A DNA stretch of 64,000 nucleotides from NCBI GenBank assembly GCA_963725665.1, contig CAVRZA010000011.1, positions 288,001 through 352,000 on the forward strand. Direction: 5' to 3'. A program made the translations under genes and the position numbers. The DNA is from an uncultured Actinomycetes bacterium (lineage in GTDB: Bacteria; Actinomycetota; Thermoleophilia; UBA2241). Positions 6,006 to 37,759 of this stretch are shown here, one piece after another. Under the pieces are notes generated by a model that searched no databases, had not been told where the DNA came from, and worked only from the letters and a program-made list of their open reading frames with translations. Each line of letters begins with the position of its first letter. Within the stretch, counting starts at the first letter, position 1.

Positions 6006-7490
6006 GTGACGTCGATCGACGATCAGTTGACACTAGTCTGGGAGGAGGCGAAAGCGCACCTCCGAGGCCAGGTCAACGACGCCACCTTCCGCCTCTGGTT
6101 CGAACGCACCGTGCCCGTTTCGATGAGCGAGGGGACATTCGTCATCGGCGCGGCCAACGGGTTCGCGAGGGAGTGGCTCGAGAGCCGCTTCGGCGAGAAG
6201 GTCCGCCGCGCCGTGGCCGAGGTCCTGGGGGCCGATGTCACCATACGCGTGGTCGTCGACGAGCGGGCCGCCGCGATCGACCCCCACCGCCCCGCCGAGG
6301 CCGGCGAGGCGGACGCCGCGCCGCGACCCGCAGGGTCGCACCGGGGTGCGCATGAGCATGAAGACCCCGCGACCGCCGAGGCCGGGTCGTCGGCCGCGCT
6401 GGCCGCGGCCTCCAGCGACGGCGACCTCCGCGCGTCGCGGCCGACCGACGCCCGTGGCCTCAACCCTCGCTACGTCTTCGAGCGCTTCGTCGTCGGTCCG
6501 CACAACGAGTACGCGACGGCCGTCGCTCGCAGCGTCGCCGAGTCGCCGGCCACCGCCTACAACCCCGTGTTCATCTACGCGGGCACAGGTCTCGGCAAGA
6601 CTCACCTCATCCAGGCCATCGCCCACGAGACGATCGCCCGTCACGCCACCCTGCGCGTCAAGTACGTCACCGTCGAGCAGTTCACCGATGAGTTCATCAA
6701 CGCCGTGACGGAGAAGGGGCGCATCGAGGGCTTCAAGCAGAAGTACCGCACCAACGACGTCCTGTTGATAGACGACGTCCAGTTCTTGGCCGAGAAGCAG
6801 CAGACCCAGGTCGAGTTCTTTCACACGTTCAATTTTCTCTATGAAGCGCACAAGCAGATCGTCATCACCTCCGACCGTCCGCCGCGTGAGCTCGAGGAGC
6901 TTGAGGAGCGGCTGCGCTCCCGCTTCGGTCAGGGGATCGTCGTCGACATCGGCCGCCCCGACCTCGAGACGCGCATCGCCATCCTGCGCAAGCAGGTCAA
7001 ATGGGAGGGCTTGAAGGTACAGGAGCAGGAGGTCCTCGAGTTCATCGCCGGACGTGTCTCCACCAACATCCGAGAGCTAGAGGGGGCGCTGACGCGCGTC
7101 GTCGGCTTCGCTTCGGTCGCTGGTGTGCCCGTGACGGTCGAGGTCGCGCGTGAAGCGCTCAAAGGACTCCTGCCGCAGGCTTACGAGCACCCCGTGACGG
7201 TCGACGCCATCCAGGGCGAGGTCGCGCGCCAGTTCGGCTGCTACGTCAGCGACCTGCGCGGCGACCGGCGCAGCCAGGATATCGCCTACGCGCGCCAGAT
7301 CGCCATGTACCTGGCGCGCGAGCTCACGGACATGTCGCTGCCCCAGATCGGCGACCGCTTCGGCGGCCGCGACCACACCACCGTCCTGTACGCCGTCAAC
7401 AAGATCAAGCGCCTGCTCAACGACGACCATGACCGCCAGCTCCACGAACTCATCCAGCTCCTCACCTCACGGCTGAAGGCGGCGCGCTGA
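6006..7490 (+). CDS. dnaA: Chromosomal replication initiator DnaA
   Basis: [50 protein letters not shown]. Confidence 0.98.
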
Positions 7491-7788
7491 CGGCCTCGTG
7501 TCGGCCGACTGACGACCCTGTGCGTCGGCGTGGGGGACAAGCTGTTGACAACAGCCGCTGTGGTGGTGGAGACATTCACAAACCGCACGCCGACCGACTA
7601 TGCTTTGCGTCGGTGAGGGGTAAGCAGCTGCTGAGACGCCTGCACTCGGTGAACGTTCCGTCCACACCACTCTCCAGAGGCGACTCACCCTCAGGTGCAG
7701 CCGGAACGACCGGGGTCCACAGAGTACACAGGGGCTATGACGACGACGAGGAGAGATACTTCTCTCTTAAGAATGATAAGGAGCTGGG
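7491..7788. promoter_or_regulatory. oriC core in the dnaA-dnaN gap, with tandem DnaA boxes, GC spacer and DnaA-trio-like repeats
   Basis: Degenerate boxes (TGTTGACAA, CCGTCCACA), then GGGTCCACA(7713)-GAGTACACA(7722)-GGGGC-TAT GAC GAC GAC GAG GAG(7736-7753), followed by an AT-richer stretch. Confidence 0.75.
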
Positions 7789-8889
7789 ATGAGATTCACC
7801 TGTGACCGCGCGACGCTGGTCGAGAAGCTCAACGTCCTTGCCCGCGGAGTCTCGGCGCGCAGCGCGCTGCCCGTGCTCTCAGGAATCCTCCTCCAGGCAC
7901 ACGACGGTCTCCTTGAGCTGTACTCGACCGACATGGAGCTCTCGATTAAAGCGACCCTTGAGACGGGTGTCGAGGGCGAAGGTGACCTGGTCGTGCCGGC
8001 ACGTCTGTTCACCGACGTCGTGAAGAGCCTGCCGGGCGACGAAGTCGTCATCGAATCGAGCGAGGGCTCGGTCAAGGTGTCGGCCGGCAAGGGCGTGTTC
8101 TCTCTCAACTCGTGGGTCGCGAGCGACTTTCCGCAGACCTCAAGCTTCGACACGGAGGGGGGCTTCGCCGTGGGGCGGGAGCCCTTCATTGAGACACTTG
8201 AGAAAGTGGGGCGCGCGGCCTCGCGCGACGAGACGAGGCCGATCCTCACTGGTGTGCTTGTGACGATCGGCGGCGGTACGCTGAAGATGGTGGCGACCGA
8301 CAGTTACCGGCTGAGCGTAAAGGAGACGCACCTCGAGGGTGGGCCGTCCGACGAGGTCGAGGCGATCGTGCCGGTGAAGGCGTTGAACGAAGTGGCGCGC
8401 CTCGCGGCGACGACTGGTGAGGGCGACATCCAGGTGGCCGTCACCGAGAACCAGGCGCTCTTCAGCCTGGGCGACGTGTGGGTGGCGACGAGGCTGATCG
8501 ACGGTCAGTTCCCCAACTACCGCCAGCTCCTCCCCGAGAGCTTCGACCACAGCATCGCCGTAGACCGAGAAGAGATTCTGGCGGTGGCCCGCCGGGTAAG
8601 CCTACTGGCGCAGAAGAACGCACCGCTACGACTCAGCTTCGCGCCGGGTACGCTGACCATGCGAGCGGTCACACAGGATGTGGGCCAGGCAGAGGAAGAG
8701 CTCGCGATCGAGTTCGGCGGCGAGGATTTCGAGATCGGCTTCAACCCCCTCTTCTTCATCGACGGTCTCGAAGGCGTCGGCGGCGAACAGGTCGTCCTGA
8801 AGTTCATCAACCCGTTGCGCCCTGGGCTCGTGACTGGGGCGGATGGTGGCTTCCTCTATCTGATCATGCCAATCAGGCTCAGCAGCTAG
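7789..8889 (+). CDS. dnaN: DNA polymerase III beta clamp
   Basis: STDMEL, RPILTGV, VATDSYRL, RLIDGQFPNY, IGFNP, YLIMPIRL. Confidence 0.98.
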   Translation: MRFTCDRATLVEKLNVLARGVSARSALPVLSGILLQAHDGLLELYSTDMELSIKATLETGVEGEGDLVVPARLFTDVVKSLPGDEVVIESSEGSVKVSAGKGVFSLNSWVASDFPQTSSFDTEGGFAVGREPFIETLEKVGRAASRDETRPILTGVLVTIGGGTLKMVATDSYRLSVKETHLEGGPSDEVEAIVPVKALNEVARLAATTGEGDIQVAVTENQALFSLGDVWVATRLIDGQFPNYRQLLPESFDHSIAVDREEILAVARRVSLLAQKNAPLRLSFAPGTLTMRAVTQDVGQAEEELAIEFGGEDFEIGFNPLFFIDGLEGVGGEQVVLKFINPLRPGLVTGADGGFLYLIMPIRLSS

Positions 8890-8953
8890 AGGCGGCGACG
8901 CGGCAGACGTTGCGTGCGGGGGCGTTCTCTCGGGAGTGCGCCGGGAGGTCAGC

Positions 8954-9175
8954 GTGGCGCGCGAGATAGCGATCCAAGGCCCCATCCCGTTGGGTTCCTT
9001 CGTCAAGCTCAGTGGCGCCGCGGCCACAGGAGGCGAGGCCAAGCGTCTCATCCAGGGCGGGGCCGTGCGCGTGAACGGCGAGGTCGAGCTGCGGCGCGGT
9101 CACGACGTCATCCCCGGTGACCTCGTGGAGTTCCGCGGCGAACAGTACATCGCGATCCGGGGCGACGCGCCCTGA
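8954..9175 (+). CDS. S4-domain protein YaaA/RlbA family
   Basis: I.LG.FVKL.G...TGGEAK..IQ.G.VRVNGEVE.RRG; GGGAGG SD before GTG 8954. Confidence 0.9.
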   Translation: MAREIAIQGPIPLGSFVKLSGAAATGGEAKRLIQGGAVRVNGEVELRRGHDVIPGDLVEFRGEQYIAIRGDAP

Positions 9176-9200
9176 GGCCCAAGGTACTGAGCGGACGGTC

Positions 9201-10566
9201 GTGTACGTCGCCTCCCTGAGACTCGTCAACTTCCGCAGCTACCGCGACAACCGGGTGCGCTTCTCGCCCGGCATCAACGTCATCGTCGGCGAGAACGCCA
9301 GCGGCAAGACGAACCTTCTCGAGGCGGCGTTCTTCGCCTTGCGCGCCGCCTCGCCGCGCACTAGCCGCGAGGAGAAGGTCGTCTCCTGGGGAGAGGAGTT
9401 CGCACGGGTGGCGGCCGAGGTGGGACAGCTCGTCGGCGACGAGCCGCCAACCGGGGGCGTTCGCTCAGCCGGCGACGAGCAGCCGCCGGTCGACGGCGGA
9501 CGGCTGCACACGGTCGAGGTCGCCTACGCCCCTGGACAGGGCAAGCGCATACGCTTCGACAGGGTCGAGGTGGAGAACCTGGGCGAGTTGCGACGACGAG
9601 CGCACGCGTTCATCTTCGTTCCCGAGAGCCTCTTGCTCGTGAAGGGTAGCCCCGCGCGACGCCGGGCCCACCTCGACGCCTTCGCCGCGACGATCGATCC
9701 TGCGTACGAGGCGACCGCCCAGGCGCTGCCGCTGGCGCTGAGGCAGCGCAACGCGCAACTCCAGCGCGTGCGCGAGGGCAGCGACAGCGCCGGCCTCGAC
9801 GTGTGGGACGGCCAGCTCGCCCGTGTCGGCGTCGAGCTCGGGCGGCGGCGAAGGGAGCTCGTCGCGCGCCTGGCGGCGCGCTTCGCTCCCTTCGCCGCCG
9901 CCCTCGCCCCGGCGGGCGGCGACTTCAGTCTGGTCTTGGCCTCGCACTTCGATGAGACCGGCCTCGACGAAGGGGCGTACCTGGCGGCCCTGCGCTCGCG
10001 CCGCGCGCGCGAGGTCGCGCGCGGCGCGAGCGCGTTTGGACCCCACCGCGACGACCTCCAGGTCGTCGAGCGCCAGGCGGACGGGCGTGTGCGCGACCTG
10101 CGCCTGTTCGGCTCTCAGGGCGAGCAACGAGCGGCCGTGCTGGCCCTCCTCCTGGCGGAGCGCGCGGTGGCCGAGGAGGCGACCGGCGACCTGGGCACGC
10201 TCTTCCTGGACGACGTCATGAGCGAGCTCGACGACGCCCGGCGCCGCTTGCTGGCGCGTGTGCTCAACGACGGCGGGCAGAGCATCATCACGACGACCAA
10301 CCTCCTGTACTTCACCGGTGAGGAGCTGGCCGGCGCGCGCGTGATCGAGTTGCCGCTCCCACAGAGCGCTCTCCTGCAGAGCGGTGGGGAGCCGCAGGGC
10401 GACGCCGTCGCGGCGGGAGGCGGGACCGCTTACGGGAGAGCCGGGGCTGATGCGGCCCGCGGTGGCGATGCCGCGGCGTCCGGCCACGACGGGTACGACG
10501 AGGGCGCCGCCGTGCGCGGCCACGGGTTGCCCGACGATGGCAGTGACGTCGCCGAGGCGGCCGGCG

Positions 10567-10574
<8 letters not shown>
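9201..10574 (+). CDS. recF: DNA replication/repair protein RecF
   Basis: NFRSY, GENASGKTNLLEA, GPHRDDL, SQGEQR, LDDVMSELD. Confidence 0.95.
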
Positions 10575-13586
<3,012 letters not shown>

Positions 13587-13683
13587 GCGCACGGCGACCG
13601 CGCGCCGGTCACGTCACACCGGTCGTCACCAGGCGGGCGCCCTGCGCCGCCGGCGTGGGGCGATCCTCTCTTCGAGGTAGGCC

Positions 13684-16158
<2,475 letters not shown>

Positions 16159-16515: not shown

Positions 16516-17124
16516 ATGACGGCGGGAGCGACGATCCCGAAGCCGCGGGATCTCGAGCGCGCACGCGCCGCCTTCCGGGAGCACGAGCCACGGGACATCT
16601 TCTATCGCGCAGCCAGAGAGCTGGTGGAAGCTGCGCTGCGCGGCGACGGCGAGCTGAAGGTCAGCGAGGCATTGGCGGTGCTGCTGCAGACCTGGAACAG
16701 GGCCTTTTACCAGTACCGGCCCTTCGACGAGCAGCACCTGGCCGACATAGACCGCCTATGCGAGAGCCACCAGGCCGACGTGGAACTCTGCCGGACCATG
16801 ACGATCGACGACATCGCCGCCGACGACGAGGCGTTCGTACGCGAGATCTTCGGCGATTTCGAGTCCGTTCTCGGGCCGGTAGGGGCGGCAAAGGCCCTGC
16901 ATCTCCTGGCGCCGGCGTTCTTCCCCCTGTGGGATCGCGCCATTGCGCAGGCGTGCGGTCTTGCGCTGCAGAAGACGGGCTCCAATTCGGAGCTGTATTT
17001 CCGCTTCATGCGGGTCACCCAGCTGCAGTGCCGGGAGCTGAGGTCCGCCGGCGTTTCCGGCGCCGACCTTCTGAAGCGCATTGACGAGTACAACTACTGC
17101 CGCTACACAATGGGGTGGCTGTAG
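16516..17124 (+). CDS. Hypothetical protein, possible HhH-type DNA glycosylase-like fold
   Basis: Clean 202-aa ORF; LGPVGAAKALHLLAP.FFPLWD and LLKRIDEYNY resemble HhH-K..H...P..D patterns. Confidence 0.55.
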   Translation: MTAGATIPKPRDLERARAAFREHEPRDIFYRAARELVEAALRGDGELKVSEALAVLLQTWNRAFYQYRPFDEQHLADIDRLCESHQADVELCRTMTIDDIAADDEAFVREIFGDFESVLGPVGAAKALHLLAPAFFPLWDRAIAQACGLALQKTGSNSELYFRFMRVTQLQCRELRSAGVSGADLLKRIDEYNYCRYTMGWL

Positions 17125-17236
17125 GTCCTCGGGACGCGCCGGCTGCCTGACCAAGGAGCCGTGCGGCCTCGAGGGCCAAACGCCGCTGATCACTCTCCTT
17201 GGCTGCGACTGAGCCGACGGCTTCGAGCGCGGCTGG

Positions 17237-18607
17237 TCAGGTCACCAGGATCGCCCGGAAGTCGTTGACGTTGGTGCGCGTGGGGCCGGTGACGACGAGG
17301 TCGTCGAGGGCGGCGAAGAAACCGTAGGCGTCGTTCGCCGCCAGAGCGGCCTCGGCGTCGACGCCGGCCCGAGCGGCGCGCTCGAGTGTGTCCGGGCCGG
17401 CCACGGCGCCGGCGTTGTCCTCGCTGCCGTCGATGCCGTCGGTGTCGCAGGCGAGCGCGGTGACGCCGGGGGCGCCGGCGAGGCCGACCGCCAGCGCGAG
17501 CAGGTACTCGCCGTTGCGACCGCCGCGCCCGCCGCCGCGCACCGTCACCGTCGTCTCGCCACCCGAGAGGAGCACGAACGGCGGCGCGGGCGGCGGGGTC
17601 GTGAGCACTGCGGGGCGGGCTGCCCCCGCGGCGACGGCCGTTTCGAGGGCGGCTTGTGCTTGCCGACCGTCGGTGGCGTGCGCGAGGGCGAGGGCGAGGC
17701 GCGCGTGCTCGGCGGCGAGCACGCGCGCCTCGCCCTCGAGATCGCCGCCGAGCACGAGCGCCGTGACACCTGCTGCCTGCGCCGCGCCCGCGGCCGCAGC
17801 GAGCGCTCGCCCGGCCGTGGCGACGACCTGCACGAGATCGTCGGCGAACCCCGGATCACCGGGCTTGGGCGTCTCGGGCGGGCGCCGGCCGGGACCCTGC
17901 GCCCCGTCGTAGAGGTGGGCCACGACGGCTGCTGGCCCCTCGATGTCGTAGCGGGCCAGCACGTCGAGAGCCTCCGCGAAGGTGGTGGGGTCGGGCAGGG
18001 TCGGCCCCGAGGCGACGACGGCCGCGTCGTCGCCGGGCACGTCGCTCACGACAAGGGTCGCCACACGAGCCGGGTGCGCCGCCTCGGCGAGGCGGCCGCC
18101 CTTCACCGCCGAGAGGTGCGTGCGTACGCAGTTCATCTCGCGGATCGAGGCGCCGCAGCGCAGCAGAATCGCCGTGACCGCCTGCGTGTCGTGCATCGAG
18201 AGCCCCGGGGCCGGCAACGCCAGCAGCGCCGAGCCACCGCCCGAGAAGAGGGCGACGAGCAGGTCGTCGGGCCCCAGGGCGCGCGCCAGCTCGAGGATGC
18301 GCGCGGCCGCCTCGCGGCCGCGCGCATCGGGCAGCGGGTGCGCCGCCTCGACGACCTCGATCCGCTCGCAGGGCACGCCGTGCCCGTCGCGGGTGACGAC
18401 GAGCCCCTCCAGAGGGCCGCCCCACGCTTGCTCCACGGCGCGTGCCATGACCGCTGCGGCCTTGCCGGCGCCGACGACGACGGTGCGTCCGGCCGGCGGC
18501 GTGGGCAAGACCGCGGCCAGCTCGTCCCAGGGCGAGGCCGCGGCGACGGCCGTCTCGAAGAGACTGCGCAAGAAGACGCGCGGGTCGTCCACTAGGCCGG
18601 CTCCCAT
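17237..18607 (-). CDS. Glycerate kinase, class II (TtuD/MOFRL)
   Basis: GAGKAA..MA, AAHP.PD, SGGGSAL, LS.VKGG.L, SDVPGD, SGP, SGGETTV, GGRN, TDGIDG, TG.T.TNVND. Confidence 0.93.
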   Translation of the reverse strand: MGAGLVDDPRVFLRSLFETAVAAASPWDELAAVLPTPPAGRTVVVGAGKAAAVMARAVEQAWGGPLEGLVVTRDGHGVPCERIEVVEAAHPLPDARGREAAARILELARALGPDDLLVALFSGGGSALLALPAPGLSMHDTQAVTAILLRCGASIREMNCVRTHLSAVKGGRLAEAAHPARVATLVVSDVPGDDAAVVASGPTLPDPTTFAEALDVLARYDIEGPAAVVAHLYDGAQGPGRRPPETPKPGDPGFADDLVQVVATAGRALAAAAGAAQAAGVTALVLGGDLEGEARVLAAEHARLALALAHATDGRQAQAALETAVAAGAARPAVLTTPPPAPPFVLLSGGETTVTVRGGGRGGRNGEYLLALAVGLAGAPGVTALACDTDGIDGSEDNAGAVAGPDTLERAARAGVDAEAALAANDAYGFFAALDDLVVTGPTRTNVNDFRAILVT

Positions 18608-18623
18608 TGGCGGTGCACGTTCA

Positions 18624-21268
18624 TCAGACCAGCCCCCGCAGCCTTGCCGCCGCGCGCTCGAACTCGGGCCCTGTGAAACAGTAGCCGAGCTCGGTGAACC
18701 CGGCGCGCAGCTCGCGCACGCGCTCCCGCACGTCGGCGTCCTCGAGGATCACCGCGGCCATGAGGTCGGCCACCTCGGCGAAGTCGGCCTCCTTCATGCC
18801 GAAGCGCGTCATCTCGGAGACACCCAGGCGCAGACCGCCGGCGGCTGTGAACGCCTCCTCGTCGGGCAGGCCCTGGTAGTTGCAGATGATGTTGCTCGCC
18901 TCGAGACGCTCGGCGACCTCGTGTCCACGTCCGTAGCCGACCTTGACGACGACCTGGTGGGTCTCCGTGAAGTCGACGGCAGGGTCGCCGGCGACCGACA
19001 CGCCGCGCCCGTGCAGCGCCCGGGCGAAGGCCTTGGCGTTGGCGATCACCTGCGGCTGGTAGGAGTCCTTGAAGGCCATCATCTCGTAGGTGGCCAGAAG
19101 CAGCCCGAGCAGCGTGCCCAGGTGGTGGTTGGAGACAGACCCCGGGAACGTGCGGCGCTGGATCGCCTCCCAGAGGTCGTAGCGCTCCTCGCCCTCGACG
19201 AAGCGGCTGCCGACGACTCCGCGCTGCGTGCCGAAGAAGGTCTTGTGCGTCGAGCCCGTGACCAGGTCGGCGCCCTCCGCGAACGGCTGCTGGAAGTGCG
19301 GCCCGACGAGGCCCAGCACGTGGGCCATGTCGTACATGACGACGGCGTCGAGGCCGGTCTCGTCGAGGTACGCGCGCACCTCGCGCACCGGCTCGGGGTG
19401 CAGCACCATGCTGCGCCCGAAGATGATGAGCTCGGGCCGGAAGCGCTCGATGAGCTCGTACGTCTCGGCGAGGTCGATGCGGTAGGGGTTGTCCTCACGC
19501 ATGGGGAAGTTGACCACGGCCGGCGCGTCGGTGCGCGGATAGCGGGCGACGTAGTCGCGCAGCGCCCCCATGGGCTGGGCGCTCAGGTGTCCGCCCTTGG
19601 CGATGTGGTTGTTCATCACCATGCCGATGCGCCGCGGCTCGGCCTTGGGGTCGCCGCGGTTGAGGTACTCGACCATGGCGCTGAAGACGGCGGCGTTGGC
19701 CATCTGGCCGCTGATCACGCGCGTCTCGGCCTCGGCACAGCCCAGGTAGGCGGCCATCTCGGCCCGCAGACGCTCCTCGACCGCCTCGATGAACCGGTGC
19801 CCTGGTAGTAGAAGACATCGACGTCGTAGAAGGCCTCCGCCTGCCGATGCTCGGCGTAGCGGAAGGCGGGGTCCATGATCGAGGCCAGGCGCACGAGCGG
19901 CGAGGCCGTCATCTCGGACGGTATGAGGTTGATGCACTCCCGCTGCCGCCACTCGGTGTTGCTGACCGTCTCGTCGAGCAGCAGGCGCGCCTTCGCCGGC
20001 GCGTCTCCGCCCGACAGCTCGGGCCCCGGCGGCTCGTAGTCGTAGACGATCGGCCGCGCGTACGGCGGGGCGTCGCTGCGCGCGTGATAGGGCACGACGA
20101 CGGCGCGCGCGCGACTGCCGCGGATGTCGACCGCGACGATGTCGTCCTCGACGATGTCGCTGTCGATGTAGGCCAGGGCGATGGCGCGCTGCGCCTTCTC
20201 GTCGGTCAGGCGCGAGTCGAGACCCTCGCCGACGATCTGCCAGTAGGGGATCGAGGTGCCGCTACTGACCCAGCCGACCCGCTTCTCGTCCTTGAAGACG
20301 GGAGCGCCGGAACGCGCGATGCCGCGCTCCGCGAGCGCGATGGGCTGGACCAGGCGTGGCAGATCGTCGATCAGCGAGTAGTCGCGGCCGACGATGCGCA
20401 CGTAGGCGTCGTGCTGGCGGCGCAGCGACTCGCGTCCGATGTATTGGCCTTTGAGCGGCGAGAAGCTCACGGCGAGCTTCGCCAGGGGGATGGCGTAGAT
20501 GGGGATCTCCACGCCGTCGGGATCGACGCCCAGCTCGAAGCCGTAGAGCGGCAGGCCGGCCTCGAGCCGCAGGGTGTCGCGGGCGCCGAGCCCGGCGGGC
20601 TCGGCGCCCGCGCCGACGAGAACGTCCCAGAGCTCGCCGGCGTGCTCGGCGACCACGAAGAGCTCGAAGCAGAGCGGCTCGCCGGTGTAGCCCGTGCGTC
20701 CGATCTTGACCTCGAAGCCGCCCAGCGTGGCGATGCTGAGCTCGTTGCGCATGACGTCGGGCAGGCCGCCCTTGGTGAGCAACGGCGCCAGCACGTCGCG
20801 CGAGCGCGGCCCCTGCAGGGCCACCATGGCGATGCGGCGCGTCGCGTCCTCGAGCTCAAGCCCGGCAAAGCGGCCGCGCTCGCGGGTGAAGTGCTCCCAG
20901 TCCTTCTCCCGGTTGGCGGCGTTCACGACCAGCAGGTACTCGTCCTCATGGAAGCGGTAGAGGTAGGCGTCGTCGATCGCCCCGCCCGTGGGCGTGGGGA
21001 CGACCGTGTACTGCGCCTGACAGACCTCGAGCCCGGCGGCGTTGTTGGTCAGGACGTGCTGCAGGAACGGCAAGGCTTCGGGGCCGCGCAGCACGAAGCG
21101 GCCCATGTGCGAGACGTCGAAGAGCCCTGCCCGCTTGCGTGTCGCCAAGTGCTCGCCGATGATGCCCGTCGGGTACTGGACGGGCATCTCCCAGCCGGCG
21201 AACTCGACGAGCTTGGCCCCGGCTGCCACATGGCGTGCGAAGAGCGCGGTGCGCGCAAGCCCGGCCAT
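18624..21268 (-). CDS. GcvT aminomethyltransferase - serine hydroxymethyltransferase fusion (1-nt frameshift near 19795)
   Basis: GcvT part: FAGWEMPVQY, LFDVSHMG, RTGYTGE, GLGARDTLRLEAG. The same frame runs on into SHMT (INLIPSE, RYAEH..YYQG); the shifted frame has SGQMAN, GGHLS, DMAHVLGL, GSTHKTFFG and R.G. Confidence 0.85.
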
Positions 21269-21270
21269 CG

Positions 21271-22521
21271 TCACAACGACCGCCCCTCGACGAAGGCCTT
21301 CAGCCTGCCCAAGCCCATCGCGATGCGGTCGGCGTCGATGCCCGAGTAGGCGATGCGGATGTAGCGCCGGTGCTCGCCCGGAAGCTCCCGCCCGAAGTGC
21401 AGCCGGGTGCAGAAGGAACAGCCGGTGGCGTCGAGCGCGCCTAAGCGAAAGTCGGCGTAGTCGGTCAGGCCGGTGCGCTCCATGGCCCCCGTTACGTCGG
21501 GGAAGAGGTAGAAGGTGGCGTCGGGCGAGTAGCATGAGACGCCCTCTATGTCGTTGAGGGCACGCACGGCGATGTCGCGCCGCTCCTGCAGCACGCGCAG
21601 GATCTCCTGCGGCCCCGACTGGTCGCCGGTGAGGGCCTCGACGCCGGCGTACTGCACGAAGTGGTTGGTGCAGGACTCTTCGTTCACGTTGAGCGTGGCG
21701 ATGACGGAGATGACCTCCTTGGGGCCCACGGCGCCGCCGAGCCGCCAGCCCGTCATGGCGAACTTCTTGCTGAACGTGTACAGGATCACGGTGCGCTCGG
21801 CCAAGCCCGGCAGCGAGGCGATCGACCGGCTCTTACCGCTGTAGCGGATGTCCCAGTAGGCCTCGTCGGAGAGGACGTAGAGGTCGTGCTTGAGCGCCAG
21901 CTCGGCCAGCGCCTCGAGCTCCTCGGGCGGGCTCTCGGCGCCGGTGGGGTTGTGCTGGTTGTTGTAGATGAGCAGGCGCGTGCGGGGCGTGATGGCGGCC
22001 TCGATCGCATCGAAATCGAGCAGGAAGTTCCGCTCTCCGGGGATGAAGCCGTACGGCTTGGCGACACCGCCGTGGAACTCGATCTGCGACTCGTAGATGG
22101 GGAAGCCGGGGTTCGGATAGAGGACCTCGTCGCCCGGGTTCATGAGCGTGAGGAGGAACTTCTCGATGACCGGCTTGCCGCCGGGCTGCACGGCGACGTT
22201 CTCGGCCGAGTAGGCGATGCCGTGTGTGCTCGAGACCTCGACCGCCAGCGCCTCCCGAAGCTGGGGGATGCCGCCGTTGGGGCAGTAGCCGGTCTTGCCG
22301 TCGCGCATGGCGCGCTCCGCTGCCGCCATGACGTTCTCCGGCGTGCGCAGGTTCATGTCGCCGAGGTGGAAGGGAAAGATCTCGTTGCCTTCTTGCGCGA
22401 AGGCCGTCGCCTCGGCCGATACGGCGAACGCCGTCTCCGTGCCCAGGTGCGCCACCCGATCGGCGAGCTTCATGGTCATCTGCGTCATGTCGTCCTCCGC
22501 TCCGGTCTTGATCTCTGACAT
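21271..22521 (-). CDS. PLP-dependent aminotransferase class I/II
   Basis: NPTG, SDEAY, SKKFAMTGWRLG (PLP lysine), IRIAYS. Confidence 0.9.
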   Translation of the reverse strand: MSEIKTGAEDDMTQMTMKLADRVAHLGTETAFAVSAEATAFAQEGNEIFPFHLGDMNLRTPENVMAAAERAMRDGKTGYCPNGGIPQLREALAVEVSSTHGIAYSAENVAVQPGGKPVIEKFLLTLMNPGDEVLYPNPGFPIYESQIEFHGGVAKPYGFIPGERNFLLDFDAIEAAITPRTRLLIYNNQHNPTGAESPPEELEALAELALKHDLYVLSDEAYWDIRYSGKSRSIASLPGLAERTVILYTFSKKFAMTGWRLGGAVGPKEVISVIATLNVNEESCTNHFVQYAGVEALTGDQSGPQEILRVLQERRDIAVRALNDIEGVSCYSPDATFYLFPDVTGAMERTGLTDYADFRLGALDATGCSFCTRLHFGRELPGEHRRYIRIAYSGIDADRIAMGLGRLKAFVEGRSL

Positions 22522-22532
22522 GTCGTCTCCCC

Positions 22533-23684
22533 TCAGGATGGCTGGTCGCACATCGGCAGGCCGAGTTCGGCGGCATTGACTATGCTCGGCGCCGCCTGCG
22601 GCGGCGCCGAGCCCAAGAAGGGCGTCACGTCGTCCCGGCCCCACACCGGCCAGCCCTGCAGGCAGGCGGCGATGTTGCTCGCCGCAAGAGTGGCCATGCC
22701 CTCGCGCGTCCAGCTCGTCGCCGAGCCGATGTGCGGCACGGCGACGACGTTGGGCAGCTCGGCAAGCCCCGGCGCGAGCTCGGGCTCGTGCTCGAATACG
22801 TCCAGGCCGGCGTAGAACCCCGGGTTCGCCCGGCAGTGGTCGACCAGCGCCGCCTCGTCGACGATCGGTCCGCGGCTCGCGTTGATGAGGATCGCTGTGG
22901 GCTTCATCAACGCGAGCCGCCGCGCGTCGATGAGGTGCACGGTCTCATCGCTGAGCACGGTGTGCAGGCTCACCACGTCGGCCGTGCGCAGCACCTCATC
23001 GGCACTCTCGGCCCGCCGGCAACGGACCGGCGCCTGCCCGTGACGGGCGAGGAAGGCGCCGTAGTCGGCGAGGTATCCTTCGAGGGTCTCGTTGCCGTGC
23101 GGGTCGAAGTAGACCAGGTCCATCTTGTGGCCCTCGACCATCATCCTCGCGTAAGCGGCGCCGATGCGCCCTGCGCCGATGACGCCCACGGTCTTGCGCC
23201 AGAGCAGCTCGCCCAGGAAGAGCGTCGGCAGCCAGCCCCTGAAGCGGCCGGCGGCGAGGTAGTCGTGGGCCTCGACGACGCGCCGCGCCGCGGCGAAGGT
23301 CAGGGCGACGGCGAGCTGCGCCGTCGTCGCCGTCAACACCCCGGGGGTATTGCCCACGGCTATGCCCCGACTCGTGGCCGCCGCCAGATCGACGTTGTTG
23401 TAGCCGACGGCGTAGTTGCTGTAGGCGTGACCGCCCGCCGACGCGAGCGCGTCGAAGGCGGCCGCGCCCCAGGGCTCCGTGAGCTGGCCGATGACCCCGT
23501 CGCAGCGCTCGCCGATCATCTCCACCAGCTCGTCGATGGTCATGGGCTCGGTCGAGAGGCACATGTCGACACGGCAGTCGGCGGCCACGAGGCGTTCGAA
23601 CCAGAGTCGCCCCGGGAGCTCCTGGGTGACGAAGACGCGCCGCGTCCCGGTGGGGTTCTCGATCCAGCACTCCTTGCCGCTCAA
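22533..23684 (-). CDS. Hydroxypyruvate reductase / D-glycerate dehydrogenase, plant HPR1-like
   Basis: DGVIGQLTEPWG, AVGYNNVD, GNTPGVLT, GAGRIG.AYARMMVEG.KM, SRGP, DVFE.EP, PHIGSA..WTREGMATLAA, PSIVNA..LGLP; TTG start after AGGAGG. Confidence 0.9.
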   Translation of the reverse strand: MSGKECWIENPTGTRRVFVTQELPGRLWFERLVAADCRVDMCLSTEPMTIDELVEMIGERCDGVIGQLTEPWGAAAFDALASAGGHAYSNYAVGYNNVDLAAATSRGIAVGNTPGVLTATTAQLAVALTFAAARRVVEAHDYLAAGRFRGWLPTLFLGELLWRKTVGVIGAGRIGAAYARMMVEGHKMDLVYFDPHGNETLEGYLADYGAFLARHGQAPVRCRRAESADEVLRTADVVSLHTVLSDETVHLIDARRLALMKPTAILINASRGPIVDEAALVDHCRANPGFYAGLDVFEHEPELAPGLAELPNVVAVPHIGSATSWTREGMATLAASNIAACLQGWPVWGRDDVTPFLGSAPPQAAPSIVNAAELGLPMCDQPS

Positions 23685-23702
23685 ACGCCGCTCCTCCTGC
23701 CT

Positions 23703-23741
23703 GAAAGGCGAAAGGACAGGGTGAGCTCCCTCACCCTGTCC
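23703..23741 (-). terminator. Hairpin followed by a U-rich tract in the glycine riboswitch expression platform
   Basis: GGACAGGGTGAG-ggag-CTCACCCTGTCC (12-bp stem) followed by TTTCGCCTTTC. Confidence 0.6.
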
Positions 23742-23783
23742 CAGTGTGCGGTCGCTTTCCGACGCTGGTCCGGGGGCCCGTCC

Positions 23784-23888
23784 CGTCGCGATCCTTGGGC
23801 CTGAGAGTTTCGGCGGCAGCACCGCCTTGCCCCTTCGGCGCCCGCCGCGCACAGACTCACCGCGGTGGGCTCTCGCGCGACGTTCAGT
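23784..23888 (-). ncRNA. Glycine riboswitch aptamer
   Basis: Minus strand: CGTCGCG-CGAGAG-[P2]-CGCCGAAGGGGCAA-[GGCGG..CCGCC]-GAAACTCTCAGGCCCAAGGA-TCGCGACG; upstream of a gcvT/SHMT operon. Confidence 0.9.
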
Positions 23889-23915
23889 CGGGCGTCCTTC
23901 GCTGCTTGCGGCGCC

Positions 23916-23945
23916 AATCTAGCAGCGCCCGCGTGAAGAGGTCAA
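23916..23945 (-). promoter_or_regulatory. sigma70-type promoter of the glycine operon
   Basis: TTGACC (23945-23940)-N18-TAGATT (23921-23916). Confidence 0.55.
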
Positions 23946-23980
23946 CCGCCGCCCTCAACCGCCGCCCTCAACCGCCGCCG
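23942..23980 (+). repeat. 13-bp tandem repeat, three copies (TCAACCGCCGCCC)
   Basis: Copies at 23942, 23955 and 23968 (last base differs in the third). Confidence 0.9.
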
Positions 23981-24003
23981 GCTTCTGGTAGAATCTCGTC
24001 TCC

Positions 24004-25035
24004 GTGAGCCCCTCCCCCGACAACCCGGTGACCACCGAGCGCCGCCCGCGTGTCTTCTCGGGTATCCAGCCCAGCGGAGCGCTCCACCTGGGCAACCTGC
24101 TCGGGGCGATCCGCAACTTCGTCGCTATGCAGCAGACGCACGACTGCGTCTTCTGCGTTGTCGATCTGCACGCCATCACCGTGCGCCAGGAGCGCAAGGA
24201 GCTACGCCGGAGCACGCTCGAGGTGGCCAACACCTTCCTCGCCGCCGGCATCGACCCGCGGCGGTCGATCGTCATCGTGCAGTCACAGGTGCCGCAGCAC
24301 ACCGAGCTCGCCTGGATCCTCAACACAGTCGCCTACATGGGCGAGCTGCGGCGCATGACGCAGTTCAAGGACAAGACCGGCGGCGGGGAGAGCGAGAGCG
24401 TCGGCGTCGGGCTCTTCGACTACCCCGTCCTGATGGCGGCCGACATCCTCCTCTACCGGGCCGACGCCGTACCGGTGGGCGAGGACCAGAAGCAGCACGT
24501 CGAGCTCACGCGTGACCTGGCGGAGCGTTTCAACAACGCCTTCGGCAAGACGTTTGTCGTGCCGACTCCGATCATCCGCGAGGAGGGGGCCCGCGTGATG
24601 GCCCTCGACGACCCGACCAAGAAGATGAGCAAGAGCGCCGGCTCGGCCTACAACTACATCGCCCTCGACGACTCGCCCGACGACATCAGGCGCAAGATCA
24701 GGCGCGCCGTGACCGACTCAGGCACCGAGGTGCGCACGGGGCCCGACAAGCCGGCCCTCACCAACCTGTTGACCATCTACGCGCTGCTGGCCGGCGAGCC
24801 GGTGCCGGTCATCGCGGAGCGCTACGAAGGCAAGGGCTACGCCGACTTGAAGCAGGATCTGGCCGAGGTGGTGGTCGAGGTGCTGGCGCCGATCCAGGAA
24901 CGCATGCGCGCGCTCGAGGCCGATCCGAGCCAGACCCTCTCCGTGCTCAAGGACGGCGCCGAGCGCGCCGAAGCCATCGCCGAGCGGACGATGGCGAGGG
25001 TGCGCGAACGCGTCGGACTCTTGCCCAGGTTGTAG
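24004..25035 (+). CDS. trpS: Tryptophan--tRNA ligase
   Basis: SGIQPSGALHLGN, YPVLMAADIL, VPVGEDQKQHVEL.RD.A.RFN, KMSKS. Confidence 0.97.
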   Translation: MSPSPDNPVTTERRPRVFSGIQPSGALHLGNLLGAIRNFVAMQQTHDCVFCVVDLHAITVRQERKELRRSTLEVANTFLAAGIDPRRSIVIVQSQVPQHTELAWILNTVAYMGELRRMTQFKDKTGGGESESVGVGLFDYPVLMAADILLYRADAVPVGEDQKQHVELTRDLAERFNNAFGKTFVVPTPIIREEGARVMALDDPTKKMSKSAGSAYNYIALDDSPDDIRRKIRRAVTDSGTEVRTGPDKPALTNLLTIYALLAGEPVPVIAERYEGKGYADLKQDLAEVVVEVLAPIQERMRALEADPSQTLSVLKDGAERAEAIAERTMARVRERVGLLPRL

Positions 25036-27773: not shown

Positions 27774-27849
27774 TGGTGGAGCATAGCGGATTCGAACCGC
27801 TGACCTCCTGGGTGCGATCCAGGCGCTCTCCCAGCTGAGCTAATGCCCC
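27774..27849 (-). tRNA. tRNA-Ala (anticodon CGC)
   Basis: GGGGCATTAGCTCAGCTGGGAGAGCGCCTGGATCGCACCCAGGAGGTCAGCGGTTCGAATCCGCTATGCTCCACCA; G3:U70 pair and encoded CCA. Confidence 0.97.
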
Positions 27850-31714: not shown

Positions 31715-34700
31715 CTACTCCGCATTGCCGAGGAGCGCCTCGAGCGCCGCGACGACCTCCGGATCGAACTGCGTGCCGGCGCAGCGGCGCAGCTCCTCGA
31801 GCGCCTGGTGTTCTGAGAGCGGCGGCCGGAAGGGGCGTTCGACAAGCATGGCGTTGTACGCGCAGGCGACGGCCACGACGCGGGCGGCGAGCGGTATCTG
31901 CTCGGCGGCAAGACCCGCCGGGTACCCCGTGCCATCGAAGTGCTCGTGATGCGAGGCGATGGCGTTCGCCACCTCGTTCGAACCACCGAGCTGTCGCAGC
32001 AGGCGCTGTCCGGTCAGGGGATGTTCCCGGATCAGCGCCCACTCGTCTCCGGAGAGGGCCCCGCGTTTGTTGAGGATGTGTTCCGGCACGCTGATCTCGC
32101 CGATGTCGCAGAGGCGAGCGGCCTCGACGACAACGGTCGTCTCAGTCTCGGGTAGACCGAGGCCTGTGGCCATCCCGCCGGCCAGGCGCGCCACGGCCTC
32201 ACCGCGCTTGGCCGCATACGCGTCCCTGGCCTCGACGACCTCGGCGATGAGAGACAGATACCCGTGCCCCTGAGTGTGGATGACGCGCTCGGAAGCAGTG
32301 GCCACCTCTTCGAGGGAGAAGGCCACGACCCTGTTGCGTCCGTGGCGCTTGGCTCTATACATGGACCAGTCGGCCTTGTCGAGGAGCTCCTCCTTGCCGT
32401 CGGCGTCGTCGGGGAACGTCGCCGCGCCGATGCTTATGGTGAGGCCGCCCCGTCCGTTCTCGAAGGTCGCATCGGCCACGCCGGCACGGATCCGCTCGGC
32501 GACCTCCGATGCCTCCGCCGCGCCGGTCTCTATGAGGACGACGCAGAACTCCTCGCCGCCGTAACGGGCCACCAGGTCGACGCGCCGGATGGAGTCCTCG
32601 ATGATGCGCGCCACCGCCCGCAGGGCGCGGTCGCCGGTGCTGTGCCCCAGGAGGTCGTTGTAGTCCTTGAAGTGGTCGAGGTCGCAGAAGAGGAGTGTGA
32701 GCTGCGTGCCCTCGCTGCGAGCGCGATCGATCTCCTCGCTCAGGCGGTCGTGGAGGTAGCGGTGGTTGTAGAGGCCGGTTAGGCCGTCGGTGATGGCGTC
32801 GATCTCGGCGCGGCTCAGCCGCGAGGCCGCGGTCTCGAGCATCGTGGCCTGCGGCTGCCTCATCTTGCTCGTGAGGCCGACTATGTCGAGAGCGGGGATG
32901 TCGACCTCGACCGCCCCGACGATGCGGCCGGCCTCGTCGCGCAGCGGCGCGAGGCCGGCCGCCCAGACACCGTACCCGTCGGCGAAGATGAGGTTCATGT
33001 CGCCCCTCTCGCCGGCGAGCACCAGGGGCAGTTCCTCGTCGGCCTTGACCTCCTCGCCGAGGTGCGAGTGTTCGGGAGACTCCGGCTCCTCGGCGTCGAC
33101 GACGATCATGTGCTTGCCGTCGCGCTCGACCTGGGTCGTCACGTAGCGCACGGGGGGGTTGGCGTCGCGCAGCTCACGCAGCATGCTTGCCATCTTGAGG
33201 TACTCGGGGCGACGCTCGTCGTCTGGCTCACGCAGGAGCGTGTGCTCGGCCGGGTCGATCCTCGCCGCACCCTCCGTGGCGATGCCCGTCGCCCACGCGT
33301 GGCGTTCCGTGAGCCTGGCGAGCACGCGCTCGAACGCCTCGACCATGGCCGGGTCGAACTGGCTGCCCGCGCAGCGGCGCAGCTCCAGCAGGCACTCCGC
33401 GTACGAACGCGCCGCCTTGTAGGGGCGTTGCAGCGACATGGCGTCGTAGGAGTCGACGATGCACATCGCGCGGGCAAGAGGCGGGATCTCTTCGCCGGCG
33501 ATGCCGTCGGGGTAGCCGCCGCCCTCGTAACGTTCGTGATGGTGGCGCACGCCGAGGACTAGCTGCTCGTCGAAGAGAGGACGGATGATATCGGCGCTGA
33601 TGACGGGGTGCTCGCGCATGAGTCCCCACTCCTCCGGGTTCAGCGGTCCCTGCTTCAACAGCACGCGGTCGGAGACGCCGATCTTGCCGATGTCGTGCAG
33701 GTAGGCCGCCTCCTCCACCTCCTCCAGCAGCTCGATCGGCCAGCCCAGCTCGTGGCCGAGCATCACAGCATAGGCGGCGACACGCGCGGCGTGGCCCAGC
33801 GTGTAGTAGTCCTTGGCGGTGAGGGCGGTGCTCAGCCCCTTGAGGTTGCTCAGGTGCAGGCGCTTTATCTCGTCGTAGAGCCGGGCGTTGCGGACGGCGA
33901 GGGAGAGCTGCACTCCGACGCGCTCGAGGAGCTGCAGGTCGGCGGTGCCGAAGGCGTGGGTCGCGGCGGACAGCAGAGCCAGTGCGCCGGCCGGTGTGCC
34001 GTCGCCGTCAAAGACACCCACGACGATGGCCGACGAGGCGTCGCCGAGCAGCGAGCCTGCCTGGGGGATCGGGTCTTCGCGAGGGAGGTCGAGGGCGACG
34101 ACGGGCGCTGCGGTGAGGCGGGCGATGAATGCCGGATCGACGTCGAGGTCGGCTGCCCATTCGATCTCGGAGAGGGGCCGCGGCCAGGTGAAGACGGCGC
34201 GCAGCGCACCGTCTTCGCGCAGCACGAACCCAGCCTTGTCAAAGGAGTACAGCGGAGCGAGCTGCTCCACTACCGCGCGTGCTATGTCGGGCAGCTCGAG
34301 GCTGGCGGTCGTGCTGCTCGCGATCGCGTTCAACAGCGCGTTCTCGCGCGTGCGGAGCTGGGCGCTCTCGAACAAGTCGGCGTTGTGGATGGCGAGGGCG
34401 GCCACGCGGCAGATCGACTGGACGAGCTCGATCTCGGCCTCGCTGAACTCCCGTTCTACGCGCCGGTCGAGCAGTTCCACCGCGCCGATCACGACGTCAT
34501 TGACGATCAAGGGAACGACGAGGAATACCTGCTGGCCGTACTCCCGCAGCGCCGCCGCGGCACGAGGACTCACGCGGGGGTCGCCGCGGCGCAGCACGGC
34601 GGGGCGTCGCGATTCCGCGACGATCTGCATCGGCGACCAGTCGGCTAGTGAGAGCGCCTTTGCCCGCCGCAGCCACGGCTCGTCGAGGGCGCCGTCGACC

Positions 34701-37700: not shown

Positions 37701-37759
37701 GCGTCGTTGACGCGCAGCCAGCCGTTGCGTCGCTTTGAACGTGTGGCGGACAGCCCCAT
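31715..37759 (-). CDS. Giant c-di-GMP signalling protein: MerR/BldC-like HTH, about 7 GAF domains, HD-GYP, GGDEF, degenerate HD-GYP
   Basis: AADLLGVS.NTLRRW.D.GKI...RSPGGHRRF; repeated VPL.....IG..E GAF motifs; LHDIGK..HHERYEG.GYP; RRVD..RYGGEEF; LCDIGE..HHEHFDG.GYP. Confidence 0.9.
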   Translation of the reverse strand: MGLSATRSKRRNGWLRVNDAADLLGVSLNTLRRWSDTGKIACYRSPGGHRRFRREDLQALLAAQERPTASKARPDPERLTVSELRRRVADLGAIVEAGLEGAERHSVDDVLRAVARRLADATHSPVADIYAVEDGSIRALVSYDNGAFDPSWEGKTFRIADYPATRQAIESLQVRVVASLDDPVLTPEVRTSLASWGYQSQLSLPLVAHDEVIGLAELSDTVPRDYADDLELIRGLAEVAARVIENARLFEQVERHNAALRELVDIGRLVSHSHDVDELLRSVARRLLTTLGATDCDIYKIQEKGVFTCLVSVDRSGDDESVVGKALRLDLYPLAAEAVKSGEPVIVHDRTDPRLTAEDLAVYDEYGFASELCVPLMVDRRAVGVIEIYDDRPRDFRQYLDFMKGAAQVIGGAMEKALLYRLAERRSKVLKALVDLGAVTAQSPDAEDFLREVTHRLTLTIEAADCEVYLADDVGTLCCRAGYERDVGFDDECVGTVLDTEEYPLTRRFASAGEVLVVTNPDDPRLNSAERAIFARWGYVSELCIPLLAGERLIGIIDVFDDRERDFAEYLDFITSAGQMVAGALENRFLLDQVNDRNRELLDSARRREEEARRVSSLLDTSRAISSTLVLEDVLQLVAKRAGELLDTGACYIYELDAQAEAFRWRCEYERDAAYAGGADIGTAYPYATWPEYDLLLESAIIERHRSDADLDERTRAEMDEWHETTLVSVPLRFGDEIVGLMEIAEHGAERHFSPAELDMARAFGEQAAAAIRNAQLYRRQERQTLQLASLLDASRAISSAAELDESLVIVAREAVAALDCDECVIFEVDEQRREEAARAFFSARREEYEYLGKRFPLEEWPNHVAQLAQGEIVEDSLSDPAIHPCSRASMERWGAKTSLNAPLYFAGQPVGIMELLELDRERHFTPAEIEVVTALGEQAAIAIHNGKLIESLRDTNKELQKSLGQLALLSETSMELSSTLALRDVLLSTAMRLTSTIGVPDCDVYILRGNEHLDCLASVVDGALDEPWLRRAKALSLADWSPMQIVAESRRPAVLRRGDPRVSPRAAAALREYGQQVFLVVPLIVNDVVIGAVELLDRRVEREFSEAEIELVQSICRVAALAIHNADLFESAQLRTRENALLNAIASSTTASLELPDIARAVVEQLAPLYSFDKAGFVLREDGALRAVFTWPRPLSEIEWAADLDVDPAFIARLTAAPVVALDLPREDPIPQAGSLLGDASSAIVVGVFDGDGTPAGALALLSAATHAFGTADLQLLERVGVQLSLAVRNARLYDEIKRLHLSNLKGLSTALTAKDYYTLGHAARVAAYAVMLGHELGWPIELLEEVEEAAYLHDIGKIGVSDRVLLKQGPLNPEEWGLMREHPVISADIIRPLFDEQLVLGVRHHHERYEGGGYPDGIAGEEIPPLARAMCIVDSYDAMSLQRPYKAARSYAECLLELRRCAGSQFDPAMVEAFERVLARLTERHAWATGIATEGAARIDPAEHTLLREPDDERRPEYLKMASMLRELRDANPPVRYVTTQVERDGKHMIVVDAEEPESPEHSHLGEEVKADEELPLVLAGERGDMNLIFADGYGVWAAGLAPLRDEAGRIVGAVEVDIPALDIVGLTSKMRQPQATMLETAASRLSRAEIDAITDGLTGLYNHRYLHDRLSEEIDRARSEGTQLTLLFCDLDHFKDYNDLLGHSTGDRALRAVARIIEDSIRRVDLVARYGGEEFCVVLIETGAAEASEVAERIRAGVADATFENGRGGLTISIGAATFPDDADGKEELLDKADWSMYRAKRHGRNRVVAFSLEEVATASERVIHTQGHGYLSLIAEVVEARDAYAAKRGEAVARLAGGMATGLGLPETETTVVVEAARLCDIGEISVPEHILNKRGALSGDEWALIREHPLTGQRLLRQLGGSNEVANAIASHHEHFDGTGYPAGLAAEQIPLAARVVAVACAYNAMLVERPFRPPLSEHQALEELRRCAGTQFDPEVVAALEALLGNAE

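Follow-up and report, generated by a model that had tools for sequence, protein, structure and literature searches.

Among described systems, those closest to the locus analyzed here are glycine-cleavage operons governed by glycine riboswitches. According to published accounts, 93% of type-1 singlet riboswitches control glycine-cleavage genes (PMC6944388), and the ON design of such singlets is one in which a ghost aptamer, stabilized by 2-3 kcal/mol by glycine, acts as the antiterminator (PMC6239177). We analyzed a four-gene locus headed by a riboswitch of this kind on the minus strand of a 64,000-nucleotide stretch (the window; positions 288,001 to 352,000 of contig CAVRZA010000011.1, assembly GCA_963725665.1) from an uncultured bacterium of the Thermoleophilia (UBA2241). 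It resembles those operons (PMC6944388, PMC6239177) in having an aptamer and a terminator/antiterminator platform ahead of an aminomethyltransferase. In contrast to them, the T protein (GcvT) is here fused to serine hydroxymethyltransferase (SHMT), and the presumed common transcript adds genes for an aminotransferase, for a reductase of HPR1 type and for glycerate kinase. We propose, with a probability of about 0.6, that this is a glycine-induced catabolic or assimilatory operon for the conversion of glycine to serine, hydroxypyruvate, D-glycerate and 2-phosphoglycerate (2-PG).

The chemistry of such a route is already known from methylotrophs, plants and animals. The methylotroph serine cycle, with SHMT, serine-glyoxylate aminotransferase (SGAT), HprA and a class II glycerate 2-kinase, takes serine to 2-PG by the same reactions and with the same kinase class, as summarized in PMC2063504; the present locus differs in its class I rather than class V aminotransferase, its glycine-riboswitch control and the presence of GcvT in the unit. 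Animal gluconeogenesis from serine, described in the same source, also passes through hydroxypyruvate and glycerate to 2-PG with a MOFRL-family kinase, whereas the unit described here belongs to a bacterium, is under riboswitch control and is coupled to the cleavage of glycine. A proposal for Thermococcus kodakarensis (PMC11032457) likewise places glycine cleavage and SHMT ahead of phosphoglycerate formation (there 3-phosphoglycerate, 3-PGA) in a non-photosynthetic prokaryote and has class I aminotransferases in C2 metabolism; there, however, serine kinase acts first and is followed by phosphoserine aminotransferase and SerA, in place of hydroxypyruvate and glycerate. In plants, the latter half of photorespiration (the C2 cycle) has the same reaction order, from the glycine cleavage system (GCS) and SHMT through a serine aminotransferase and an HPR1-type reductase to glycerate kinase, but is distributed over three compartments rather than encoded in one operon, uses another aminotransferase class, and ends with a class III kinase that makes 3-PGA, not with a class II kinase that makes 2-PG. 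No RuBisCO (PF00016) was found in the genome of the window. The first-pass annotation of this DNA had presented the locus as a counterpart of that plant pathway; because of the missing RuBisCO and the class II kinase, the parallel holds for the chemistry only. Photorespiration, or 2-phosphoglycolate salvage proper, was rejected on these two grounds and on the class I aminotransferase. On the best-supported reading, three features are new: the entire outlet is placed under a riboswitch, the serine slot is filled by an aminotransferase of class I, and GcvT and SHMT form an abundant fusion. In the literature searched, from which subscription journals and the supplementary tables of PMC6944388 fell outside, we found no glycine riboswitch linked to a hydroxypyruvate reductase or a glycerate kinase; the lone paper combining "glycine riboswitch" and "hydroxypyruvate" concerns, in the text available from it, RoxS of Bacillus.

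The four genes lie 3' of the aptamer and are separated by 11 nt, then by a 4-nt overlap (or a 2-nt gap, depending on the start of the fusion), and then by 16 nt. A promoter and a glycine riboswitch ahead of four tightly spaced minus-strand genes had been described previously, and this layout was confirmed, as were, at the level of Pfam domains, the four gene families that had been named. The genes are presumably co-transcribed. The first gene (22533..23684; TTG start preceded by AGGAGGAG) encodes a D-2-hydroxyacid dehydrogenase of 383 aa (2-Hacid_dh_C, 148 bits; 2-Hacid_dh, 62 bits). Homologues with 64-73% identity are called "hydroxypyruvate reductase 1" or "glycerate dehydrogenase" in JGI naming, from which the label HPR1 is taken without direct comparison to plant sequences. 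The protein scored below every NCBIfam equivalog cut-off, the highest being glyoxylate reductase (221.6 against 455), and its closest solved structures are archaeal glyoxylate reductases (6bii, 2dbq and 5aov). We predict that it is a hydroxypyruvate reductase/D-glycerate dehydrogenase. The second gene (21271..22521) encodes a class I, aspartate aminotransferase Ib-like pyridoxal phosphate (PLP) enzyme of 416 aa (Aminotran_1_2, PF00155, 176 bits), and by this domain falls outside the class V AGXT/SGAT family. The last gene (17237..18607) encodes a class II (MOFRL) glycerate kinase of 456 aa (DUF4147, 277.7 bits; MOFRL, 128 bits). Its matches among solved structures are 2b8n, "glycerate kinase, putative" (231 bits, E 2.7e-67), and 1x3l (E 6.1e-65), and it scored below the archaeal equivalog cut-offs. 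According to PMC2063504, all class II kinases characterized so far form 2-PG, with roles in the serine cycle and, in animals, in gluconeogenesis that starts from serine; the predicted activity here is thus glycerate 2-kinase.

Between these lies the fusion gene (18624..21274, with its start at 21274 or 21268), which the assembly reads in two frames and which matches GCV_T, GCV_T_C and SHMT. Its N-terminal GcvT half scored 254.8 bits with PF01571 and cleared two NCBIfam cut-offs (NF001567, 307.7 against 300; TIGR00528, 256.5 against 235.85). The C-terminal SHMT half scored 109.4 bits with PF00464, against a cut-off of 27, but stayed below the NCBIfam cut-off of PRK00011 (226.9 against 335). It carries the THKT motif with the PLP lysine, which was invariant in 14 fusions. 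Among solved structures it is by far closest to 4bhd/4uqv, "serine hydroxymethyltransferase", over the full length (E 3.4e-51), with bacterial SHMTs at only ~80 bits. Since 4bhd is the archaeal enzyme of Methanocaldococcus, the SHMT half appears from its sequence to be of archaeal type.

The leader carries one RF00504 aptamer (23779..23887; 54.9 bits where the gathering score is 32, covering model positions 1-94 of 94), and a permissive rescan of 23600-24050 at E<=1 found no second one. Upstream of it, a site scan found a sigma-70-like promoter, TTGACC-18 nt-TAGATT with TG ahead of the -10 hexamer (23916..23945). This was the single such site in 16900-24100, where shuffled sequence averages 0.2, and TTGnnn/TAnnnT pairs were seen by eye 5' of the aptamer in most related leaders as well. 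The -35 hexamer forms the end of the last copy of a perfect tandem repeat (23942..23979; period 13 nt, 2.9 copies, unit GGGCGGCGGTTGA, 100% matches, score 76), which places three TTGA motifs at 13-nt spacing; the repeat may be a regulator site or a product of slippage. Downstream of the aptamer, minimum free energy (MFE) folds predicted a ghost-aptamer/antiterminator helix, CCCCC-GGA-CCAG ... CUGG-GA-CAGGG (23734..23776), whose 3' strand would double as the 5' arm of a terminator-like hairpin (23702..23742). The latter consists of GGGACAGGGUGAG-GGAG-CUCACCCUGUCC (23742-23713) followed by UUUCGCCUUUC, and a simple terminator scan did not list it, the U-tract being too poor. The MFE fold of the whole leader gave z = -1.83, which is uninformative.

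Comparison of the window with 17 aptamer-bearing relatives showed a common series of blocks: CCC(U/C)GGA directly after the aptamer, a variable hairpin, GGACAGGGUGA...UCACCCUGUCC, and a U-rich run. When the last arm was left out, the MFE folds of 17 of the 18 leaders contained a CCCUG:CAGGG helix around the variable hairpin, the exception being locus L033; when it was included, the terminator hairpin was predicted in all 18. These modelled folds class the leader as a type-1 singlet whose platform combines a ghost helix and a terminator, and the leader fits the ON architecture of PMC6239177. Because a single aptamer and a ghost helix that competes with a terminator constitute that published design, the riboswitch is probably, by analogy, an ON switch. 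The glycine induction that had been postulated for this locus thus gains from a leader with the published architecture of a glycine-activated singlet, and from the riboswitch at the head of 17 of 20 related loci.

The genome of the window (G000) is a metagenome-assembled genome (MAG) of 3.73 Mb in 12 contigs, 97.5% complete, in which absences carry weight without amounting to proof. It contains one other glycine riboswitch (contig C11, 524956-525053), 213 kb from the first, whose leader shares the CCCUGGA...GACAGGG/terminator layout. This second riboswitch heads gcvH-gcvPA-gcvPB (C11:525232-528492); gcvP and gcvH had been said to lie outside the window, and that is where they were located. Three more GcvPA/GcvPB-like pairs, with 31-39% identity to a Christensenellaceae GcvP, were seen at C8:4856-7767, C4:638557-641258 and C1:251694-253994. 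The SHMT half of the fusion is the lone PF00464 match in G000, and one further GcvT-like domain forms the tail of a dimethylglycine/sarcosine-dehydrogenase-like open reading frame (ORF). This genome therefore has its sole SHMT and its sole true GcvT as the halves of a single gene, under the control of what is presumably a glycine ON switch. In the relatives searched, the fused SHMT is also the lone SHMT of G005, G009, G012, G013, G016 and G018, which are 90-98% complete.

In the mechanism that we propose, transcription would begin at the promoter-like site; bound glycine would stabilize the ghost helix as antiterminator and let RNA polymerase read through, and without glycine the terminator would form. 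The second riboswitch, of the same design, would turn on gcvH-gcvPA-gcvPB. With the P and H proteins, the GcvT half could then convert one glycine to CO2, NH3 and methylenetetrahydrofolate (methylene-THF), and the fused SHMT half could form serine by adding the C1 unit to another glycine. As a reason for the fusion one may speculate that the folate is handed directly from one half to the other. The class I aminotransferase would convert serine to hydroxypyruvate, the HPR1-type dehydrogenase would reduce this to D-glycerate, and the class II kinase would deliver 2-PG into lower glycolysis. The parts, their families, linkage and conservation, and the riboswitch class are observed; the substrate at each step is predicted. 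The gene content fits the sequence from two glycines through serine, hydroxypyruvate and glycerate to phosphoglycerate with which the locus had originally been credited.

Absences elsewhere in the genome point the same way. No Fe-S serine dehydratase (SDH_alpha) was found in G000, which leaves serine with no obvious Fe-S deaminase exit and agrees with the earlier suggestion that carbon leaves through hydroxypyruvate rather than through serine deaminase. Neither malate synthase nor an above-cut-off glyoxylate carboligase was found there, so that glyoxylate has no obvious sink. Taken together, these absences make a glyoxylate-forming role of the aminotransferase look like a dead end and hydroxypyruvate a sensible exit for serine.

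The fused type of SHMT was found in 22 of 40 relatives searched. We fetched 20 of the 22 loci, leaving aside those of G017 and G020, where the hits were cut. The aminotransferase adjoins the fusion in 18 of the 20, and the riboswitch stands at the head of the cluster in 17; L025, L026 and L039 had none at the gathering score even after a rescan. All four genes occur together in seven loci (L026, L032, L033, L034, L036, L040 and L041), reductase, aminotransferase and fusion in two, aminotransferase, fusion and kinase in one, and the fusion alone in two. The commonest arrangement, at eight of 20 loci, is aminotransferase and fusion with neither reductase nor kinase. In a wider sample of 81 genomes of the family (G000 included), the fusion was found in 64 and an HPR1 orthologue in 47 (26 of the 32 high-quality genomes); 39 have both. 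Since the linkage of reductase and kinase varies across loci and family genomes, the stable core consists of riboswitch, aminotransferase and fusion; the complete operon of four genes recurs as one arrangement among others. Of the previously envisaged conservation of all four genes with the riboswitch, this core was upheld, and the four-gene order was found in a subset.

A transketolase-like thiamine diphosphate protein of ~800 aa, which scores far under every transketolase cut-off, is encoded after the fusion or kinase gene in seven of the 20 loci (L024, L026, L027:8055-10502, L028, L029, L030 and L038) and also in locus L044 (8704-11064). Its orthologue in G000 lies on a contig other than that of the operon (C1, ~248460-250120), with a threonine-aldolase-like gene on one side and a GcvPA/PB-like pair on the other. 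Transketolases can take hydroxypyruvate as donor, and for this reason the protein may act as an alternative outlet. A SAM riboswitch was seen ~6 kb downstream of the cluster in four genus g2 loci (L024:167-301, L027:13890-13980, L028:14906-14995 and L029:10621-10711).

Several observations weigh against the proposed operon and route. Linkage of the reductase is partial: it lies within 5 kb of the fusion and on the same strand in 17 of the 47 genomes that carry it (17 of the 39 with both genes; 17 of all 81), 8-16 kb away in three, more than 100 kb away on the same contig in four and on a different contig in 15, and eight have no fusion match. In genus g2, reductase and kinase form a separate adjacent pair (G019 and G022, and a fragment in G001), in which no Rfam family, riboswitches included, was matched at E<=0.01. 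Two genomes of genus g6, G005 and G016, keep the aminotransferase and the fusion and lack an HPR1 orthologue; a glycerate-kinase match is absent from G016 and just 45% identical in G005. Locus L026 has the four genes and no riboswitch match. An ON-only switch would also keep the only SHMT and the only GcvT at low levels under glycine shortage, a condition that leak-through or other sources of glycine would have to relieve; tdh-kbl and three threonine-aldolase-like genes, present in G000, are possible sources. Finally, the fusion itself is frame-broken in the assembly.

The aminotransferase is the weakest step of the route, and the findings on it count on the same side. Its nearest solved structures are aspartate aminotransferases (1j32, E 4.9e-64; 1bjw, E 5.5e-60), it scored below all equivalog cut-offs (the best NCBIfam match, a generic subfamily, reached 236.9 bits against 422), and its homologues bear only the COG-style name "aspartate/methionine/tyrosine aminotransferase". 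We found no class I serine:2-oxoacid aminotransferase in this analysis. A class V AGXT/BhcA-like aminotransferase is encoded elsewhere in G000, adjoining serA, and could carry out the serine step instead. Because of this enzyme, and with no specific assignment for the operon's own aminotransferase, the suggestion that a class I/II enzyme had replaced the class V SGAT was not borne out. A serine:2-oxoacid activity is proposed here from the neighbouring genes.

An unlikely though by no means negligible alternative is that the fusion is a real pseudogene and the route dead in this strain. As assembled, the window sequence reads in two frames, frame A stopping at ...FYYQGTG and frame B resuming at FIEAVEE...; and the source reads were not seen, none of 20 listed runs, among which there was no RNA run, having half or more of the sampled words. 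However, the fusion was a single ORF of 881-931 aa with an uninterrupted FYYQGTxFI in all 16 relatives from whose loci the gene was extracted (16 of 20; L029, L030, L037 and L043 gave split tblastn hits and were omitted). When 19300-20300 was aligned with Logan contigs of four metagenome runs (labelled peat and freshwater sediment), all four near-identical contigs that bridge the site, from three runs and two studies, had one base more at 19793..19797. The gene is thus whole in the lineage, and the break here is an assembly error or a strain-specific lesion. A lesion would leave the genome without any GcvT or SHMT. An acetolactate-synthase-like gene (C4:270049-271493) also matches in two adjacent pieces in different frames, which suggests that the assembly contains other single-base indels and inclines the balance toward assembly error. 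Programmed frameshifting was rejected, since no slippery heptamer was seen by eye at the site, the relatives are uninterrupted and the environmental contigs have the extra base.

We regard it as doubtful that the operon serves glycine detoxification instead, with the aminotransferase acting on glycine/glyoxylate or, as a general Asp/Ala/Glu transaminase, spreading the liberated nitrogen among amino acids, and with the HPR-type enzyme mainly as a glyoxylate reductase. Such a role would suit the glyoxylate reductase structures closest to the reductase and the commonest arrangement of the loci, in which riboswitch, aminotransferase and fusion occur with neither reductase nor kinase. The aminotransferase also retains a GGK lysine that aligns with the lysine of 1bjw, presumably the residue that binds the distal carboxylate in subgroup Ib. 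Glyoxylate-using class I aminotransferases are moreover known in Thermococcales (PMC11032457). Against this, glyoxylate would have no assimilatory sink in G000, the operon's glycerate kinase would have no role, and HPR1-type enzymes carry hydroxypyruvate names.

It is improbable that the locus is a C1-assimilation module, either as the arm of a serine cycle that leads from serine to phosphoglycerate or as the exit from a reductive glycine pathway, where glycine formed by glycine cleavage running backward would induce its own use. The kinase and reductase are of serine-cycle types, both glycine-cleavage operons are glycine-switched, and anaerobes, among them Desulfobacterales MAGs and Candidatus Formimonas warabiya, carry the fusion. 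For the reductive C1-assimilating version raised in the first-pass annotation, nothing was found in favour except formate-tetrahydrofolate ligase (fhs), which, like gcvPH, was located in the genome as had been advised (C6:387520-389193). In what was examined, there was no sign of autotrophy or methylotrophy (no RuBisCO; genes for C1 oxidation and malyl-CoA were not searched for), and in PMC6944388 and PMC6239177 glycine-cleavage riboswitches are catabolic ON switches. The anabolic direction, from glycerate through hydroxypyruvate and serine to glycine and C1 units under an OFF switch, would explain why the sole SHMT of G000 and of the six relatives named above stands behind a riboswitch, and OFF-type glycine riboswitches are reported (PMC5829553), but this is very improbable, as the kinase draws carbon off serine, GcvT breaks down glycine, the ON architecture is common to the operon and gcvH-gcvP leaders, and the usual serine route is available through serA and its AGXT-like partner.

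Beyond the family, a scan of species-representative genomes returned full-length fusions with 47-72% identity, of which 23 of 80 loci were examined. The hosts include a Thermoleophilia MAG, MAGs of Desulfobacterales and other Thermodesulfobacteriota, Candidatus Formimonas warabiya, Oscillospiraceae, Christensenellaceae, Lachnospiraceae, SAR324 and Armatimonadetes. The aminotransferase adjoins the fusion in the Thermoleophilia locus, L044; at the other examined loci no HPR1-type reductase, glycerate kinase or close relative of the aminotransferase adjoins it, L050 having merely a 38% identical aminotransferase on the opposite strand. The fusion was found beside gcvH-gcvPA-gcvPB in L052 and, divergently, in L045, and directly behind a riboswitch in L049 (with two aptamers), L056 and L062; it therefore occupies the gcvT slot. 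In L052 (2475-11063), from a Christensenellaceae MAG, one glycine riboswitch is followed by gcvH-gcvPA-gcvPB-fusion-tdh-kbl, a unit that joins the conversion of threonine to glycine with that of glycine to serine. At least 7092 protein clusters match the fusion at E<=1e-50, and the top 120 all have both PF01571 and PF00464 and are named just "aminomethyltransferase" or "GcvT". The closest records with a taxon name are labelled Thermoleophilia or Actinobacteria, and on these the sequence analysis itself placed the host, a soil and sediment actinobacterium, as a probable member of the Thermoleophilia. We found no description of a GcvT-SHMT fusion in the literature searched.

These findings lead us to a broader and tentative proposal, which we hold possible without expecting all of it to be borne out. 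The ~880-aa GcvT::SHMT protein would be a widespread, effectively unannotated enzyme that makes serine from two glycines while methylene-THF passes from the cleavage half to the SHMT half, and would be the only SHMT in this Thermoleophilia family and the core of its glycine regulon; a new class I aminotransferase subfamily would act between serine and hydroxypyruvate; and the complete riboswitch-switched route would have arisen independently of its plant, animal and methylotroph versions. If true, the known regulon of glycine riboswitches would come to include, besides cleavage and transport of glycine, a complete outlet to glycolysis, and a large, generically named aminotransferase subfamily would gain a testable function. 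The natural fusion is also a ready-made part for engineered glycine or formate assimilation, whose design involves choices about the GCS-SHMT step and about what becomes of serine. A regulatory puzzle arises as well, namely how glycine and C1 units are supplied at low glycine to a cell in which a presumed glycine ON switch governs the one SHMT and the one T protein; Tdh-Kbl, the threonine-aldolase-like genes and fhs exist in this genome.

The flanks of the operon are unrelated to it. On one side lie two unassigned ORFs and, ~1-2 kb from the operon, a replication-origin gene block in which dnaA, dnaN, a recF-like gene, gyrB and gyrA stand in a row (6006-16158 of the window). On the other side is a divergent trpS, a neighbour retained in L035 and L044. 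Farther along the window, a tRNA gene lies at 27777-27849 on the minus strand (63.8 bits), and 31715-37759, on the same strand, encodes a protein of 2014 aa that has HTH/MerR at its head and contains two HD domains, one GGDEF domain and, in 6-7 matched stretches, several GAF domains.

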